Below are positions 56,940-64,000 of a stretch of 64,000 nucleotides of DNA, one piece after another (within the stretch, counting starts at the first letter, position 1; each line of letters opens with the position of its first letter). The translations under genes were made by a program, and so were the position numbers. Below the pieces are notes generated by a model. That model was given only the letters and a program-made list of their open reading frames with translations, made no database searches and was not told where the DNA came from. Source of the DNA: a virus. The stretch spans positions 32,001 through 96,000 of the IMG/VR virus record IMGVR_UViG_3300045971_000163. The stretch is one strand, 5' to 3'.

Positions 56940-58711
56940 CATTCTTAATCCGCAACTTAACGGTTAAAAATTTCATGAGCGTGGGTAATAACACGCAAGC
57001 AATTAACTTTGACAGAAAAGACTTAACACTCGTGCTAGGTGAGAACTTAGACTTGGGTGGCGACGATAGCGGTGCACGTAACGGCACTGGCAAAACAACT
57101 ATTGCTAATGCGTTAAGTTATGCTTTCTTTGGGCAAGCACTAACAAATATAAAAAAAGATAATTTAATTAATAAAACGAACGGCAAGGGCATGCTGGTTA
57201 CGATTGAGTTTATTAAAGATGGTGTAACTTATCGTATTGAGCGTGGACGCAAACCTGCAGTGTTGGAACTATACAAGGGTGATGTCGCGTTTGAAGCAAA
57301 GGACAACGATGCTCAAGGTGACTCGCGTGAGACTCAGAACGAAATCGATAAAATTTTGTGCATGTCACCCGACATGTTCCGCCACATTGTCGCCCTTAAC
57401 ACATATACTGAGCCATTTCTTAGTTTGCGAGCTAATGATCAACGGATTATCATTGAGCAGCTACTAGGGATTACGGTTTTAAGTGAGAAGTCGGAAGCAC
57501 TTAAAGAGCAAATTAGGCTTTCCAAAGAAACAGTAACATCCGAAGAGCATAGAATTAAAGCTATCACCGAGGCTAACAAGAAGATTGAAGAGCAAGTGGT
57601 TGCTATTAAGCGTAGGCAAGCACTATGGGACACAAAGCATGAGGAAGAGCTTACTGAGTTGTCAGGATCGCTGGGAGAAATGCTTACCATCGACGTGGAT
57701 CACGAAATTGAGCAGCATAGGTTGCTTGCTGAGTGGACTCTTAAAGATTCAGAGTTATCGTCGTTGGGTGAATTGTTATCTCGCACTGAAACTGACATGG
57801 CTCGTGAAGATAAGGCAATTACAAAACTGTTAGCAGAGATTGAGAACATCAAGGACCATAAGTGTCATACTTGCGGGCAAGAGTTACACGACGAAAAGCA
57901 AAGTGAAATCTTAGCTGCTAAGGATGCTACGTTAGCAGAGCATGTTAACAAGTTGGCTGACTTGATGGAGAAGAAAGACGTCACTGTTGGTAAAATAGAG
58001 CAGTGTGGAGAGTTATACGCTAAACCCAACACGCATTATAAAAAAGCGTTAGACGCACACAATCACAAAAATACAGTTAACAACTTAACAGCACAGCTAG
58101 AGGCTAAGTTGGCAGAGGAGAATCCATACACTGATCAAATTAGTGAAATGGAAACTTCCGCATTGATCCCAGTTGACTATTCCTTGATAGACAAAACAAA
58201 CAAAACTAAAGAGCATCAAGAGTTCTTGCTTAAACTGTTAACAAACAAAGATTCGTTTATTCGTAAGAGAATCATTGATCAAAACTTAACCTACTTAAAC
58301 GCTAGATTGTCACATTACTTAGATAAAATTGGTCTACCACATACTGTTGTATTCCAAAGTGACCTCAGTGTTAACATTGAGGAACTAGGTCGTGAGTTAG
58401 ACTTTGACAACTTGAGCAGGGGTGAGCGTGGGCGGTTAATATTGTCGTTGAACTTTGCTTTTAGAGATGTTTGGGAAAGTTTGTATGAAAAGATAAATAT
58501 ATTAATAGTTGATGAACTTCTTGACAACGGATTAGATGCTAGTGGTGTAGAAGCATCATTTGGAATTTTAAAGAAAATGTCAAGAGATTATGAAAAAAGT
58601 ATTTGGCTAATATCACACCGTGATGATCTAACAGCAAGGGCAACTAGCATATTAAAAGTAATTAAAGACGGAGGATTTACTACATATTCTGGAGTAGGAA
58701 ATGAATTATGA
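56936..58711 (+). CDS. gp46: Recombination ATPase subunit (gp46, Rad50/SbcC-like); start at ATG 56936
   Basis: KNFMSVGN, Walker A NGTGKTT, zinc hook CHTCGQ, signature LSRGE, Walker B IVDE, ISH. Confidence 0.94.
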   Translation: MTFLIRNLTVKNFMSVGNNTQAINFDRKDLTLVLGENLDLGGDDSGARNGTGKTTIANALSYAFFGQALTNIKKDNLINKTNGKGMLVTIEFIKDGVTYRIERGRKPAVLELYKGDVAFEAKDNDAQGDSRETQNEIDKILCMSPDMFRHIVALNTYTEPFLSLRANDQRIIIEQLLGITVLSEKSEALKEQIRLSKETVTSEEHRIKAITEANKKIEEQVVAIKRRQALWDTKHEEELTELSGSLGEMLTIDVDHEIEQHRLLAEWTLKDSELSSLGELLSRTETDMAREDKAITKLLAEIENIKDHKCHTCGQELHDEKQSEILAAKDATLAEHVNKLADLMEKKDVTVGKIEQCGELYAKPNTHYKKALDAHNHKNTVNNLTAQLEAKLAEENPYTDQISEMETSALIPVDYSLIDKTNKTKEHQEFLLKLLTNKDSFIRKRIIDQNLTYLNARLSHYLDKIGLPHTVVFQSDLSVNIEELGRELDFDNLSRGERGRLILSLNFAFRDVWESLYEKINILIVDELLDNGLDASGVEASFGILKKMSRDYEKSIWLISHRDDLTARATSILKVIKDGGFTTYSGVGNEL

Positions 58712-59453
58712 AAATATATACAATTTAATCGTGTCACGTGCTAAAATAAGACCTTTACTATCTTTTGAGATTCATCATATTTTACCAAAATCACTAGGCG
58801 GCGATAATTCTATAGAAAATTTAGTTCAGCTTACTCATAAAGAGCATATTTTGTGTCATGAATTATTATGGAAAAAATATAGAAAATTGGTTGGCATCAA
58901 CCATGAGTCAACAAGAAAAATGGCACATGCTTTCCATTTTTTAATGACTGACCACAATGGATTAAGATTTCCTTCAATACGGCAGGCTGCTTTAGCATTA
59001 GTTGCAGCAAGAGAAGCACAATTGGGTAAAAAATTATCAGAAGACACTAAACATAAAATAAGTCTTGGTCATAAAGGACAAATACCTTGGAATAAAAATA
59101 TGCAAGGATGGGCATCTACAGAAACTTCAGAAAAAATTAGCAATGCTAATAAAGGAAACAAACATGCGTTAGGTATTAAACTCAATGAGAGCCAATTAGT
59201 TCGTAGAAGTGAAATTAACTCAGGCATTAATAACCCAATGTTTGGGCACTCGCATAGTGAGAAATCACGTAAAGCAATGAGTGATTCACAAAAACAATTA
59301 TGGACTCTTGAACGAAGAAAACAATATAGCAATGTTGCTTTATCTAGAAAGAAAATTATGTGTAATCATTGTGGCAAAAAAGCAACTGCTGGTATGTTTG
59401 CCAGGTGGCATGGGCAAAACTGTAAAAATTACAACGCAGACACAAATGACTAA
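58701..59453 (+). CDS. Free-standing HNH homing endonuclease with NUMOD3-like repeats
   Basis: EIHHILPKSLGGDNSIENLVQLTHKEHILCH; LSEDTKHKIS, PWNK, NPMFGHSHSEKSRKAMS; C-terminal CNHCGK..RWHGQNC. Confidence 0.88.
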   Translation: MNYENIYNLIVSRAKIRPLLSFEIHHILPKSLGGDNSIENLVQLTHKEHILCHELLWKKYRKLVGINHESTRKMAHAFHFLMTDHNGLRFPSIRQAALALVAAREAQLGKKLSEDTKHKISLGHKGQIPWNKNMQGWASTETSEKISNANKGNKHALGIKLNESQLVRRSEINSGINNPMFGHSHSEKSRKAMSDSQKQLWTLERRKQYSNVALSRKKIMCNHCGKKATAGMFARWHGQNCKNYNADTND

Positions 59454-59506
59454 CTATTTTGTAGCCACCGGCCAATGAGCATAAATTAATATATAAGGAG
59501 ACAAAT

Positions 59507-59692
59507 ATGGCAACACATGAAGATATCGTAGCAGCATTCACAACTTATATTGATGAATCACTAAAATTTGAAGACAAGGGCGTAAAAGCCGCAGCAGCTC
59601 GCGCTCGTGCAGCATTGGGTGATGTAGCTAAATTAGCTAAAGTACGCCGAGCTGAGATTCAGGAAAAGAAAAATCTGATGGCAAAAGCATAA
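59507..59692 (+). CDS. Histone H1-like (Hc1-family-like) small DNA-binding protein
   Basis: KFEDKGVKAAAARARAAL..KLAKVRRAEIQ; strong RBS TAAGGAG. Confidence 0.65.
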   Translation: MATHEDIVAAFTTYIDESLKFEDKGVKAAAARARAALGDVAKLAKVRRAEIQEKKNLMAKA

Positions 59693-59717
59693 ATAAAAGA
59701 GTGGAAACACTCTTTTA
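59689..59717 (+). promoter_or_regulatory. Late promoter overlapping a 10-bp GAAA hairpin upstream of the HNH gene
   Basis: ATAAATA 59689-95; TAAAAGAGTG-GAAA-CACTCTTTTA 59694-59717 abutting the AGGA RBS. Confidence 0.7.
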
Positions 59718-59726
59718 GGAATGCTT

Positions 59727-60446
59727 ATGATTTTTCTTGATAACAAATATACTAACTGGTATTTTAACATAGTAGCGAATGCGAAACAAACAGCAGCATA
59801 TACTGAAAAGCACCACATTGTTCCAAGATCATTGGGTGGTAGTAACGACAAGAGCAACATAATAAAGTTATCCGCAAGAGAGCATTTTATTTGTCACTGG
59901 TTATTATCAAAGATGTGTGCTGGTAATGAAAGAAACAAAATGGTGTATGCTTTGTTTATGATGAAGAAAGAATCAAAACAGCATCAACGATATTTTACAC
60001 CTATCACAAGCCGTGTTTTTGAAAAATATAAATCTTGTCTTCGTCATTCAGATGAAACTAAACAAAAGATGAGGAAGCCCAAATCTCAAGTTCATTGTAA
60101 TAACATAAGTAAGGCGAGACAAGGTATTGCGTTTAGTGATCAACAAATTCATAATATGAGTATTGCTCACAAAGGAATTGTGACATATAAACGAACAGAT
60201 AAGCACCGTGAGATTACAAGAAATATACATAAAAATAAAGTTGTATCTGAAGAATCAAGAAAAAAGATGAGTGAATCGCACATAGGAAAATCGCCAGGCA
60301 ACAAGGGAGTTCAGCTATCAGTAGAACAAAAGGCACTACGGCCATGGCACCATTGTTCTATATGTGGGACAAAATCTCAAAATAAAGCAAATATAGTACG
60401 ATACCACGGAAACAATTGTAAAAATGGCAGTAAACGGAAAGAATAA
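59727..60446 (+). CDS. Free-standing HNH homing endonuclease with NUMOD3-like repeats
   Basis: EKHHIVPRSLGGSNDKSNIIKLSAREHFICH; HSDETKQKM, VSEESRKKMSESHIGK; CSICG..RYHGNNC; RBS spacing favours ATG 59727. Confidence 0.88.
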   Translation: MIFLDNKYTNWYFNIVANAKQTAAYTEKHHIVPRSLGGSNDKSNIIKLSAREHFICHWLLSKMCAGNERNKMVYALFMMKKESKQHQRYFTPITSRVFEKYKSCLRHSDETKQKMRKPKSQVHCNNISKARQGIAFSDQQIHNMSIAHKGIVTYKRTDKHREITRNIHKNKVVSEESRKKMSESHIGKSPGNKGVQLSVEQKALRPWHHCSICGTKSQNKANIVRYHGNNCKNGSKRKE

Positions 60447-60921
60447 AGGAAGCTCTTTTGAACGGAAGATAGCAAATTTGCTATCTGAACGATTTGAGCC
60501 CATAACAGGGATTAAGTCATCGTTTAGAAGGAATCCAGATTCTGGCTCGTTCTTTGGTGGGACTAATAAAAAACGCACAGTAACACATGATTTAAGTCAT
60601 GCTAACTTTGGGGACATTATTTGCCCAGAAAACTTTAAGTTTTCCGTAGAGTGCAAGCATTATAAAACAGGGCCATCGTTTGCTGCCATTGTGAAGGGTA
60701 AAATCACGCAATGGGACACGTGGATAGCGCAAGCTTCGCAGGATGCTGAAAGTAGCCAGCGAAGCATGATGCTTATTATCAAGTATAACGGTGTCGATGA
60801 GATCGTTATAACTGAAAAACAGCTAGACCTAGAATCAAAACTAATATATAATAAATTCGTAGGGTACCGTTTAGCTGATGTATTATCATTACCCGACGAA
60901 GACTTTTTTATAAAAACTTAA
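60424..60921 (+). CDS. Holliday junction resolvase-like PD-(D/E)xK nuclease
   Basis: GKNKGSSFERKIA...FRRNPDSG...GDII...FSVECKHY...W..QA. Confidence 0.8.
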   Translation: MAVNGKNKGSSFERKIANLLSERFEPITGIKSSFRRNPDSGSFFGGTNKKRTVTHDLSHANFGDIICPENFKFSVECKHYKTGPSFAAIVKGKITQWDTWIAQASQDAESSQRSMMLIIKYNGVDEIVITEKQLDLESKLIYNKFVGYRLADVLSLPDEDFFIKT

Positions 60922-61020
60922 ACCCACTTCTGAGACCATCTCAAATCACACGTTAACAAACCCAAACCCCATGCAAGCGTCAAGTGACCATGTGTTAGTA
61001 GGGCAAGTTAATATCCATAG

Positions 61021-61700
61021 GTTACAACAGAGACAAACTCTTATACTTTTTCAGGTATTTTTCTAGTAACAACTCACACGCTTCATTCGCCGTAAGTTAG
61101 TTGACACAAGGATTTGCACGGAGTCCAAATTGTTCCGTGTGCTAAGGCCCTCATTGGTGGTGTGGCCCACTAGCGTAAGTGCAAGTCAGCACGATCTAAC
61201 ACACTGCGATGAGCAGTCCTTAAAATAATATCAACCCCAGAGCCATGAGTTGCGCTGGAGCGATGTTTTAGTGTTAGTTTATATAGGTTTTAAATGTGGT
61301 TGGTGGTTAATGACACGCGGTATATCCCACCAAATCAGCGGAAAGTGCTAAGATAACGATCCGATCAAAACTGATGACACACGCCTGGATCCGTACGGAG
61401 TAATGCTCATGTGCGGTAGGAGAGACATAGCCAGTTCCCCCTCCTAAAGAAATTTCAGAATCTAGTGGTACGCGACGGTAAGGTACAACGTAAATGGGAT
61501 TAGGATAGGAACGATTCGGTTTTTTCTATCTTCTTTCCACATTTACCGTGGTCTGACTCTGGTAAGATAGGACTTCAATACCGGCTTCGCCTAATACCTG
61601 AATACCAAAACACCCAACCACCAATACTGGCTATAAGGAAAGGGATAAAACGCTCGAGACGCGATAGCGTCGAAGAGCAGTAGTGCGTAGCACTACTATA
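61021..61700 (+). ncRNA. Candidate large structured non-coding RNA (~600-700 nt, multiple predicted pseudoknots); family unknown
   Basis: No ORF of 60 aa or more in 60922-61725; many nested helices whose G-U pairs work only on the + strand; three loop-to-3'-tail complementarities of 9-10 bp; boundaries approximate. Confidence 0.72.
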
Positions 61701-61725
61701 TAACAATCACACTTTGATTTTGCTA

Positions 61726-61962
61726 TTAGAAAAATGGCAATCCAGATTTTTTAGTGGTCTCGAGATTATCTTTAACGATCTTGTTGATCATTTCACGTTC
61801 TGAAAACGATAATAGCATAGCGTCCTCATAAGAAAGACCACCCCGCATAAACCAGCTTAGTTTGAGTGCTTCTTCTTTGAAGGCTTTTGCCTCTTTCTCC
61901 ATTTTGCCGATATACCCTTCGATTCTATCGGCGGGCAGTGACAAAAGCCTTAGGCGAAAAAA
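61726..61962 (-). CDS. C-terminal extension of the tail/baseplate assembly chaperone, reached by predicted -1 frameshift (gp51-like / lambda T-like)
   Basis: The -1 frame is open from slippery T-TTT-TTC (61962-61956) into the ORF LSLPADRIEG...SWFMRGGLSYEDAMLLSFSERE; only a TTG start with no RBS otherwise. Confidence 0.72.
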   Translation of the reverse strand, partial: FFRLRLLSLPADRIEGYIGKMEKEAKAFKEEALKLSWFMRGGLSYEDAMLLSFSEREMINKIVKDNLETTKKSGLPFF

Positions 61963-62786
61963 TTAGAATAGTCGAATGATAAGGTTATGTCGAAGTTATG
62001 TCCGCAAGATGAGCAAGCAACATTAACTGGCTTGATTTTTGCTGTTTCTGCATGCGCAGATAATACATCTTTTACTTTGACAGTAATTTGCCTACCAGTG
62101 TTCTTAAAGAACTCAACAATAAATGCATGATTAGTAACTTTAACCCCATCCTCTGTTAAGATGTATTCTATTGAGTCAGCGTATAAATCATTTGTCATTT
62201 CAACAATACGTGTTAAGTGATTTGTAAACTGTTCAGTTTTCTCAGCATCGTTTAACGTAACGTCACGTATTGTGTTAAGCAACTTTTGCTCTTCAAAGTT
62301 TACTAAGTTTGCTTTGGTTACGTCGGAGTATTTCCTAGGCTTAAACTTAAACGTTAGCCCATCAACTTGCAACTGCTCGTTATAGTTTGGTGGTCTAATA
62401 GATCCAAGCACATTATTCAAATCAATATTGTACGAGTTCTCTTCGTCACATTTTGGGCACTTAGCTTCAACTTCCATCATATTTGTATAGCTAGCAATGC
62501 GTATTGCTACTAAAATAGCATCTACGTCAATAGATGGCATTTCCCAAGCATTTTTAATTTCTGGAATACAAGATTGGATCACGCTTACTACCCCGCTACC
62601 GTTAAGTAGTGCGTCAGGAGTCCTGAGAGTAATCTCATCTTTAGTAGTCATTGAGTATACTGGAATTTCCCCAGTTACTGGCAACGATAGAGCATTCTCT
62701 GGCCAAAAAGAACCCCCGCTTGGTAGTTTGATGTAAATGGCTGGCTGGCGAAAGTGCTTGAAAAGTGGATTACTAGAATCTGTCAT
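61950..62786 (-). CDS. Baseplate hub/tail assembly chaperone (T4 gp26-like)
   Basis: YIKLPSGG, MTTKDEITL, DVDAILVAIRIASY, CPKC and CSSC zinc motifs, ends NFF. Confidence 0.75.
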   Translation of the reverse strand: MTDSSNPLFKHFRQPAIYIKLPSGGSFWPENALSLPVTGEIPVYSMTTKDEITLRTPDALLNGSGVVSVIQSCIPEIKNAWEMPSIDVDAILVAIRIASYTNMMEVEAKCPKCDEENSYNIDLNNVLGSIRPPNYNEQLQVDGLTFKFKPRKYSDVTKANLVNFEEQKLLNTIRDVTLNDAEKTEQFTNHLTRIVEMTNDLYADSIEYILTEDGVKVTNHAFIVEFFKNTGRQITVKVKDVLSAHAETAKIKPVNVACSSCGHNFDITLSFDYSNFFA

Positions 62787-62795
62787 AAAATCTCC

Positions 62796-62832
62796 TATAA
62801 ATACATATGGTGCATGTAGTATCTATATTTAT
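62796..62832. promoter_or_regulatory. Crossing pair of late promoters
   Basis: TATAAATA on + at 62796-62803 (exact T4 late consensus); ATAAATA on - at 62826-62832. Confidence 0.72.
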
Positions 62833-62846
62833 GTGAGCATATATTG

Positions 62847-64000
62847 ATGGATGAAGAAAATTCAAGCAGTTTTACCGAAGCAATTAATCGAGTAACCGAA
62901 GGCCTTAACGTTGAGGCTGATACTCGCGAGAAAATTGCAAAGGAGCTCAAGCGCGAACTAACAGAATCTATTAGGAGAGAGTCGTTCGCTAAATTATCAG
63001 CGGCACAGCAAAAGAAACGCACCCAAGAGTTAATATCTCACATACAATTACAAACTGACAAGCTAAAAAATAACACCATTGAACTAGCTGAGTTTAGGGA
63101 CACCACGGAAAGTGCTACTCGAGACTTAGCTCAATTTCGTAAAACTGCTGACTCTAGCACAAAAGCACAAATACAGCAAACTCTTGGGGCAGTTAAAGAC
63201 ATCGAGGGAAGGAAAAAAGTAAACGATCAGTTACTAACATCATCGGGTATGCTGGTTGGTACTCTTCTGCGGTCGGCTGGAACATTAACCACTGGTATTA
63301 TACGAGCAGTTCAAGATGGTGGGGATGGTATTAGGGTTGCGTCGACCATTCTGCAAGCTGAGTTAACTGCTGGTGGGGCAGTCGCTGGCGCCATATTTAA
63401 AGGTGTGGCATCAGTTGGTGGTGCAATGCAAAGTATGGGTCCTGGCGCCGCTAAGGCAGGTAAAGGATTAGCAATGCTTGGCAATACAGCGGGCTTTGTA
63501 TCTGACTCATTTATTGCTTTTGAAAAATTCAAATTCGAGCTACTTTCTAAGGAAGCAGAGATAGTAGTAACATCGTTCCGTGACATATCGTCAACTGGTG
63601 CAATGTTTGAAGAAGGGATGAGCGCATTAAAAAATGCGTCTATTGAGTCCGGGTTGTCTATCCAAGCATTAGGAAAAATACAAAAAACGTCAGCGGAAAA
63701 TATTTCGGGTGCTGGTTTAGGTATGGCAAAAGGGTTTAAGCTACTAGCCAAAACATTTTCAGGTGATGCTGGTAATCAGTTAAAAACTAGTTTGCTTAAC
63801 CTGGGATTTGCACTTGAGGAACAAGGCGATGTTGTAGCCAAGACAATGGAACAAATGCGTATGGCTGGCAGAGATATGAATACAGTATCTCAATCTGACA
63901 TCAAGCAAAGTACTGAAGACTACGCTAAAAACTTAAGAACAATATCGGCCATAACAGGTAAAGATGCGAAAGCAAAAATGGAAGAAGCTAGGAAAGCTTC
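62847..64000 (+). CDS. Tape-measure-like protein, N-terminal part; runs off the window edge
   Basis: Manual translation MDEENSSSFTEAINRV... open to the end; helical Ala/Gly-rich; LLNLGFALEEQ...YAKNLRTISAITGK; adjacent to the chaperone pair. Confidence 0.7.
   Translation, partial: MDEENSSSFTEAINRVTEGLNVEADTREKIAKELKRELTESIRRESFAKLSAAQQKKRTQELISHIQLQTDKLKNNTIELAEFRDTTESATRDLAQFRKTADSSTKAQIQQTLGAVKDIEGRKKVNDQLLTSSGMLVGTLLRSAGTLTTGIIRAVQDGGDGIRVASTILQAELTAGGAVAGAIFKGVASVGGAMQSMGPGAAKAGKGLAMLGNTAGFVSDSFIAFEKFKFELLSKEAEIVVTSFRDISSTGAMFEEGMSALKNASIESGLSIQALGKIQKTSAENISGAGLGMAKGFKLLAKTFSGDAGNQLKTSLLNLGFALEEQGDVVAKTMEQMRMAGRDMNTVSQSDIKQSTEDYAKNLRTISAITGKDAKAKMEEARKA

Follow-up and report, generated by a model that had tools for sequence, protein, structure and literature searches.

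It is probable that positions 60930-61697 (+ strand) of the 64,000-nt stretch of viral DNA analysed here constitute a gene for a non-coding RNA of ~770 nt, which represents a divergent subtype of a class of twin-box RNAs and would act in trans as a scaffold bearing twin words; judged from the sequence, this is the best explanation as a whole. The stretch (hereafter the window) comprises bases 32001-96000 of the 104-kb IMG/VR record IMGVR_UViG_3300045971_000163, a linear fragment estimated to be 29% complete. By its position, strand, 3' module and twin-word layout, the RNA would belong to the twin-box RNAs of freshwater T4-like jumbo phages, as a divergent subtype of greater length. These RNAs occupy a slot behind a small nuclease gene that ends the gp46/47 recombination block, converging with the baseplate-hub genes, and in another subtype the 5' third of the RNA is the Rfam family Polynucleobacter-1 (RF01718). 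In the window the slot is a gap of 804 nt (60922-61725), flanked by convergent genes at a switch of transcription direction. As its longest open reading frame (ORF) has 43 amino acids, it agrees with the ORF-free gap of ~800 bp reported in the original prediction, which a model had made from the letters of the sequence and a list of ORFs. The G+C content of the RNA region is 0.44, compared with 0.35 to 0.39 in the flanks.

Homologues were gathered from contigs of IMG/VR and the Joint Genome Institute (JGI) by searches with the PDDEXK protein encoded upstream, by alignment searches and by DNA-word scans. There were 497 homologues of the PDDEXK protein, with 66 to 98% identity and many of them on contigs of more than 10 kb, and five full-length homologues of the gap: L064, L065 (= L050), L066 (= L051), L070 (= L071-73) and L075. 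Of a further gap homologue, L161, only part is present, at the end of its contig. The window RNA and the five full homologues (six full sequences) are called type A, while the twin-box RNAs that more distant relatives carry at this locus are called type B. The type A sequences have a common core of ~480 nt, corresponding to window positions 61090-61565 on the + strand, and DNA identity in the core is 75 to 84% in the nearer relatives, at least as high as in the flanking coding sequence.

Analysis of the six whole cores with RNAalifold gave 71 pairs, 30 of which have at least one compensatory change. An explicit count of pairs over the 5' half (61096-61290) in the same six sequences gave 54 pairs with 93.7% of cells paired, 21 of them changed on both sides. 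None of 500 shuffles reached any of the five measures used and slid controls had one to five pairs with changes on both sides. These compensatory changes indicate a genuine structured RNA of ~770 nt. Some pairs (alignment columns 23-48 and 101-247) are G-U in all six sequences; since these would be C-A on the other strand, the RNA is read from the + strand. The large, multi-domain RNA on the + strand that had been proposed, also by reference to G-U pairs, is therefore upheld.

The conserved fold combines a three-way junction domain and a second domain of four helices with several hairpins, one long-range helix and a 3' end made of two hairpins (Table 1). Most stems named in the original prediction fall within it: GTTGAC/GTCAGC, GCACGGA/TCCGTGT, GCTA-GGCC/GGCC-TAGC and TTGGTGG/CCACCAA are all supported by covariation in the six sequences, and inspection of the alignment showed that TAGGAG/CTCCTA is retained, as is a hairpin of variable sequence at CCGTAC/GTGCGG. 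Where a long stem had been drawn, all six sequences fold a long hairpin, each from unrelated sequence. In the second domain, helix 61193-202/61271-80 has compensatory changes in 5 of its 10 pairs, junction stretches are invariant and L070 carries two expansion inserts; the insertions of L070 are located at hairpin tips. A helix between CTGGA (61388-92) and TCTAG (61459-63) is predicted (RNAalifold columns 416-420/529-533), with three compensatory pairs. The 17-nt loop of the G-rich hairpin at 61418-44 holds GACAUAG-N-CA-R-U-Y-CC, the word that is best conserved in the family; the stem of this hairpin in L066 is GATG/CATC, with two compensatory changes on inspection.

The long-range helix P1 (61090-93/61475-78) also varies on both strands. 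By alignment inspection it is CCTGT/ACAGG in L070, TCGTC/GACGG in L066 and GTACCGT/ACGGTTAC in L075. The data favour P1 over the closure of a third domain by AGTCCT/AGGACT that had been suggested: AGTCCT is invariant and its partner is not, with 46.7% of cells paired and no compensatory pairs. The other helix proposed there, CCAGAG/CTCTGG, is paired in 82.9% of cells and has three compensatory pairs, but a competing local helix (61237-43/61252-58) has about equal support. Pairing of CTCTGG (61557-62) with CCAGAG (61237-42) may form a pseudoknot that crosses P1.

The original prediction is correct on the existence of the RNA and on most of its local stems, but wrong on the feature that had looked exceptional, the pairing of one loop from each of three domains with successive segments of the 3' tail. 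All the words quoted in the prediction are present where they had been placed. The three perfect complements (61050-59/61593-602, 61153-61/61617-25 and 61427-35/61626-34) exist in the window and two more land in the same tail. This C/A-rich linker has four perfect complements of at least 9 nt to upstream sequence, compared with 0.27 expected, a number that was not attained in any of 500 shuffles of the linker that preserved dinucleotides. The pairings are above chance in the window, but are absent from all five homologues, where no excess of linker-to-core complements was seen (P = 0.41 to 0.72). The check on covariation supports the local helices; the three loop-tail helices are not kept. Loop-tail contacts are therefore private to one phage rather than part of the conserved architecture of the family, and there is no family-wide basis for the oligomerisation that had been envisaged. 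Nor is Domain 1, the 5'-most part of the predicted structure, a conserved element: together with the tail it is unalignable beyond the closest relative (L064, and there only in part) and is lineage-specific. The tail-complementary loops are conserved for causes other than linker pairing: four of the six sequences retain ATTGGTGG, and all six have GACATAG-N-CAAT-CCC, which reads GACATAGCCAGTTCC in the window. In the contigs of the homologues, a search for trans copies of the loop complements found only the RNAs' own loops.

In type A RNAs a GCGAC-word unit, a long hairpin and a CTCT-word unit follow one another, the words being GGTAAG, GGCAAT, GGAAT, GGCAAAA, GGTAA and GGTTA. The two words agree within an RNA at 36 of 42 positions, compared with 26.8 on average between RNAs; of 720 permutations, just one attains 36 (six sequences). 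In type B RNAs (L006, L008, L084, L085, L089, L109 and others) twin 7-mers are identical within the RNA in 17 of 17 cases, in four variants; further variants include ACAGAA, ATATGAA and CGTCGAAT. The two types also have their 3' end in common. All type A members end in two hairpins. Hairpin 1 has a GA/GAA internal loop, a short G+C stem and a GNNA loop, and in hairpin 2 a stem of 8 bp is capped by a GNA or GNNA loop. The outer stem of hairpin 1 covaries across types A and B, with compensatory changes in five of seven pairs (11 sequences). No second copy of hairpin 1 was found in the window. Thus the window has the slot converging with a 72-amino-acid ORF and hub genes, on the strand of the preceding gene, together with the twin words and the 3' module that characterize the class.

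Relatives identified through the hub protein (48 loci, 43 to 51% identity) keep the hub gene, the 72-amino-acid ORF, a gap of 410 to 870 nt and a convergent gene. RF01718 matched 7 of the 10 of these that were scanned (80 to 117 bits), on the strand equivalent to + in the window and directly after the preceding gene. The RNA that bears RF01718 (~420 nt) has the same slot, strand and two-hairpin 3' module as the window RNA, whereas in place of the 141-nt motif the window has ~390 nt of unrelated, differently folded 5' domains. RF01718 gave no match in the window at its gathering score of 37 bits, nor on 60800-61800 at E-values up to 10.

RF01718 (Weinberg et al. 2010, PMC2864571) was listed as a motif from Burkholderiales and from freshwater samples, with a possible cis-regulatory role. 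Its carriers in the present analysis are jumbo-phage contigs, and it covers only the first ~140 nt of a conserved phage RNA of ~420 nt (for example, L006 4072-4495 and L008 7050-7459, both on the - strand). The Rfam family appears to be a fragment of a larger jumbo-phage RNA. The convergent gene setting, the RF01718 RNA at the locus of relatives, the common 3' module and the twin-word layout all lie outside the original prediction.

The RNA resembles no catalogued family, as had been proposed. None of the 4227 families of Rfam 15 matched at gathering scores, no relevant one did at E-values up to 10, and no match was found in the literature searched. Searches with blastn of the gap, and of one type B gap, against 50,697 GenBank phages gave no match, and blastn and nhmmer found no sequence similarity between the gap and the 48 hub-based relatives. 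Two covariance models were built, R1 from type A RNA and R2 from the type B twin-box domain (22 sequences, 8 base pairs). An nhmmer profile and R1, run over ~100 loci, recovered the six family members only. Exact-word scans with 17-mers detected family members and chance matches in viral contigs (the latter scoring 10 to 24 bits with R1), added L064 alone from metagenomes and gave no matches in genome contigs. A two-block pattern scan added the fragment L161 and one chance match inside a gene (L160). Neither R1 nor R2 had a significant match in the cultured jumbo phages PA5oct and Escherichia coli phage A4; the four non-coding RNAs detected in PA5oct by RNA-seq lie at other places in its genome (PMC7318152).

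Several points weigh against assignment of the window RNA to the twin-box class as a trans-acting scaffold. The link between the types comes from architecture and short motifs, not from statistical homology: R1 detected nothing beyond the six full members and the fragment L161, and R2 had no match at E-values up to 10 in the window and the five other type A loci, a weak test with only 8 base pairs. Type A is therefore regarded as a divergent subtype by architecture and not as a proven homologue. With only six full sequences the covariation counts are open to phylogenetic inflation, the register of the twin words in L065 was set by eye, and no consistent partner site in cis for the twin words was found within type B RNAs. 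The folding z-score, proposed as a check on the structure, is unremarkable for the whole region, at -1.35 for the + strand and -1.99 for the - strand. No conserved promoter was seen upstream of the word that marks the 5' leader, and no U-tract follows the 3' hairpins.

If the RNA is a folded scaffold that acts in trans, it would display two copies of a short A/U-rich word (GGUAAG in the window), each just past the 3' strand of a long-range helix, with a variable hairpin between them. Both words would be read by one fast-evolving partner, more probably nucleic acid than protein. The C/A-rich linker with its complementarity to conserved loops would be a lineage-specific addition, possibly an internal clamp. 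One fixed genome slot holds several RNA forms that have the 3' end and the two-word layout in common and the 5' domains swapped; this modularity, and the change of the words in step, point to a function in recognition.

The conserved loops and twin words might instead be the nucleic-acid-reading elements of a programmable RNA that base pairs in trans at multiple sites and forms a new jumbo-phage class, its linker in the window having captured copies of natural target words and thereby showing what the loops pair with (ACCACCAAU and ACUGGCUAU). Such an RNA would target transcripts of the host or the phage, or else tag DNA that is to be replicated or packaged; this reading is unlikely.

The main rival to a scaffold in trans is a replication-origin RNA, a transcript that would form an R-loop and prime DNA synthesis, with the 3' hairpins acting as mini-hairpins of single-stranded DNA on the displaced strand. 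ColE1 RNA II and the T4 oriF and oriG transcripts stay hybridised to the template and prime DNA synthesis; ColE1 RNA II is likewise a folded RNA of ~550 nt. The window RNA directly follows gp46-like, homing-endonuclease and resolvase-like genes at the switch of transcription direction. Its 3' loops also match words of unusually stable DNA mini-hairpins, d(GCGNNAGC) and d(GCGNAGC): GCGATAGC lies at 61661 and GCGTAGC at 61685, there are related words in the homologues, and several 3' loops are GAUA or GACA and not, as RNA, GNRA. However, the dense compensatory changes and invariant G-U pairs point to a free folded RNA rather than to a DNA hybrid, and neither an A+T-rich DNA-unwinding element nor a G-rich/C-rich hybrid anchor was identified. 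A maximum of cumulative GC skew at the site is confounded by the change in gene orientation, and the RNA is present as a single copy in 104 kb. An origin function is thus unlikely. The RNA could also be no more than the cis-acting 3' end of the upstream operon, protecting the PDDEXK mRNA from 3' exonucleases and insulating convergent late transcripts with no role in trans. It lies on the strand of the upstream gene, starts 10 nt past its stop codon with no conserved promoter of its own found, and has two strong hairpins just before the convergent ORF. This is very unlikely, as ~480 nt of conserved junctions and multi-helix architecture exceed what protection of an end needs, the nuclease gene and the RNA have a terminator-like hairpin between them in L066, L067 and L070, and the RNA module persists while the upstream gene differs between phages. 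The co-changing twin words would also be left unexplained.

It is highly improbable that the RNA self-assembles through intermolecular loop-tail pairs into an oligomeric scaffold like ROOL or GOLLD, both of which are RNA-only multimers (bioRxiv 10.1101/2024.12.08.627333). That precedent and the four linker complements to exposed or conserved loops speak for it, but the absence of the complements from every homologue shows that they are not the conserved mode of the family. Moreover, matches are favoured by the C/A-rich composition of the linker and the G/U-rich composition of two of its targets, and no Rfam match to ROOL, GOLLD or OLE was obtained. Least to be expected is an RNA that serves the neighbouring PDDEXK nuclease as its dedicated guide or scaffold. 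The RNA is directly downstream of, and co-oriented with, the small nuclease gene in six of six type A members, yet the gene ahead of the RNA encodes PDDEXK_15, a SegE-like GIY-YIG protein or an unrelated product, depending on the phage. RNAs with the same 3' module at the same locus follow GIY-YIG or unrelated genes in other relatives, and this variation argues against a dedicated guide, as does Agrobacterium jumbo phage Atu_ph07, which has a PDDEXK gene but no gap.

Two other candidates were rejected. A decayed protein gene is incompatible with the lack of any ORF of more than 43 amino acids, with indels that are not multiples of three and with the compensatory changes. A group I intron was suggested by the words AGUCC and GAGACAUAG, which recall the R and S elements, but these stand in the opposite order and Rfam gave no match. 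Rfam covariance models of group I and group II introns, RNase P, transfer-messenger RNA (tmRNA) and known ribozymes gave no match in the gap, which interrupts no gene.

Table 1. Positions of the elements of the candidate RNA in the window, in 5' to 3' order; P1, long-range helix.
Element	Position	Strand	Details
Leader word GAGACCATCTC, 11 nt	60932-60942	+	4-bp mini-hairpin with CCA loop; 10 nt past the PDDEXK stop codon; marks the 5' leader
Domain 1 of the original prediction	61021-61066	+	Leader word recurs in degenerate form, GAGACAAACTC (61031-61041); tail-complementary loop at 61050-61059
P1	61090-61093 (CCGT) with 61475-61478 (ACGG)	+	RNAalifold, six sequences, columns 23-26/552-555
Three-way junction domain (Domain 2 of the original prediction)	61100-61190	+	Four helices; 25 pairs, 12 changed on both sides, 90 to 100% of cells paired
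Helices of the three-way junction	61100-05/61185-90; 61116-22/61134-40; 61141-44/61171-74; 61146-53/61158-67	+	
Second domain	61193-61280	+	Helices 61193-202/61271-80 and 61224-32/61262-69; variable-length hairpin 61237-43/61252-58
Near-invariant hairpin ACUGC-GAUGA-GCAGU	61203-17	+	Inside the second domain
Hairpin with stem TTGGTGG/CCACCAA	61296-61337	+	RNAalifold columns 285-293/314-322; five of eight pairs changed on both sides
Conserved ACACGCCUGG stretch, then variable-sequence hairpin (CCGTAC/GTGCGG)	61386-61416	+	A different hairpin in every homologue (alignment inspection)
G-rich stem GGAG/CTCC with 17-nt loop	61418-61444	+	Loop includes 61427-35, complementary to the tail
Unit 1: GCGAC and twin word 1, GGTAAG (61477-61482)	61471-61482	+	ACGG (61475-78) is the 3' strand of P1
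Long hairpin between the twin words	61490-61546	+	Folded in all six sequences from unrelated sequence (for example, TGTAACACA/TGTGTTACA in L065)
Unit 2: CTCT and twin word 2, GGTAAG (61561-61566)	61557-61566	+	
Variable C/A-rich linker (tail)	61567-61651	+	Linkers of homologues differ in length (53 to 199 nt) and sequence
Tail segments and their partners	61593-602 with 61050-59; 61609-25 with 61153-61 and 61296-308; 61626-34 with 61427-35	+	
3' module, hairpin 1	61652-61678	+	Outer stem, GA/GAA internal loop, inner G+C stem, GAUA loop
3' module, hairpin 2	61679-61697	+	8-bp stem, GUA loop closed by C-G; probable 3' end

The leader word GAGACCATCTC is found upstream of the core in six of six members. 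L064 has it in triplicate; in the window, as in the whole 104-kb record, it is unique. As no position of it varies, it may be a site read by a protein or at the level of DNA rather than a helix. Among type B-like gaps it occurs, once, in L067 only. In the gap of that contig (3508-4081, + strand) the type A leader word is combined with the G-rich hairpin of type B and twin ACAGAA words, and its RNA may be a bridge between the subtypes. At the other end of the window RNA, the convergent ORF has its stop codon (61726-61728) 29 nt past the last position of 3' hairpin 2.

On the + strand side, the gap is preceded by a gp46-like SMC/AAA_23 gene, two HNH-NUMOD3 genes and the gene for a PDDEXK_15 endonuclease of 165 amino acids, which ends at 60921. 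The HNH and NUMOD3 genes resemble those of homing endonucleases and lie in tandem (58701-59453 and 59721-60446, + strand) between the gp46-like and PDDEXK_15 genes, which suggests that this operon has been repeatedly invaded by mobile endonucleases. On the - strand side, the 72-amino-acid ORF (61726-61944), which has no Pfam match, lies downstream of the T4_baseplate hub gene (61950-62786), past a spacer of 5 nt. The hub protein has 34% identity to that of Atu_ph07 and ~30 to 33% to those of PA5oct, Rak2-like and Asteriusvirus phages; the source genome is therefore taken to be that of an uncultured T4-like jumbo phage. No second copy of the gap RNA was found in the 104-kb record, and ARAGORN detected neither transfer RNA (tRNA) nor tmRNA genes in L001 (window 59425-63225).

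Between the RNA and the 72-amino-acid ORF, L064, L065, L066 and L070 have a small + strand gene with a G-R-W-D...A-K-x-W motif, which the window lacks. In Atu_ph07 (L097 1923-3489) the hub gene, an ORF like that of 72 amino acids and a PDDEXK gene lie side by side in one orientation and leave no gap. Hence not every jumbo phage with these genes has the RNA slot. E. coli phage A4 has an unannotated gap of 909 nt at the syntenic place (L159 5046-5955; ON286972 205447-206354), with a TGnTATAAT-like promoter, two terminator-like hairpins and two copies of the word GATGAGCA; R1 and R2 do not match it.

Few large RNAs combine many conserved helices with invariant junctions, and most of those so far understood are ribozymes or the cores of RNA-protein machines. 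Like ColE1 RNA II and the T4 oriF and oriG transcripts, the window RNA would be a long transcript beside replication or recombination genes that ends near hairpins possibly acting on DNA. Those transcripts act as RNA-DNA hybrids, whereas the window RNA has dense covariation of the RNA type and no origin features were found in it. The resemblance to ROOL, GOLLD and OLE noted in the original prediction is one of size only. None of the three Rfam models matches, and the window RNA differs from them in having no nearby tRNA genes and no conserved intermolecular contacts that could be found. It has in common with them a length in the 500 to 800 nt class, many helices, conserved junctions and an association with phages.

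Compared with the type B twin-box RNAs, the window RNA is about twice as long, has GGUAAG-like and not GGAUGAU-like words and is without the left-hand GUGAC boxes. Its subtype of ~770 nt would join a class of jumbo-phage RNAs represented in public catalogues by one 141-nt orphan motif of 2010 only. The locus, strand, 3' module and crossing long-range helices are the same in both types, as are an upstream G-rich hairpin with a long conserved loop and two units that flank a hairpin and carry a word specific to each phage.

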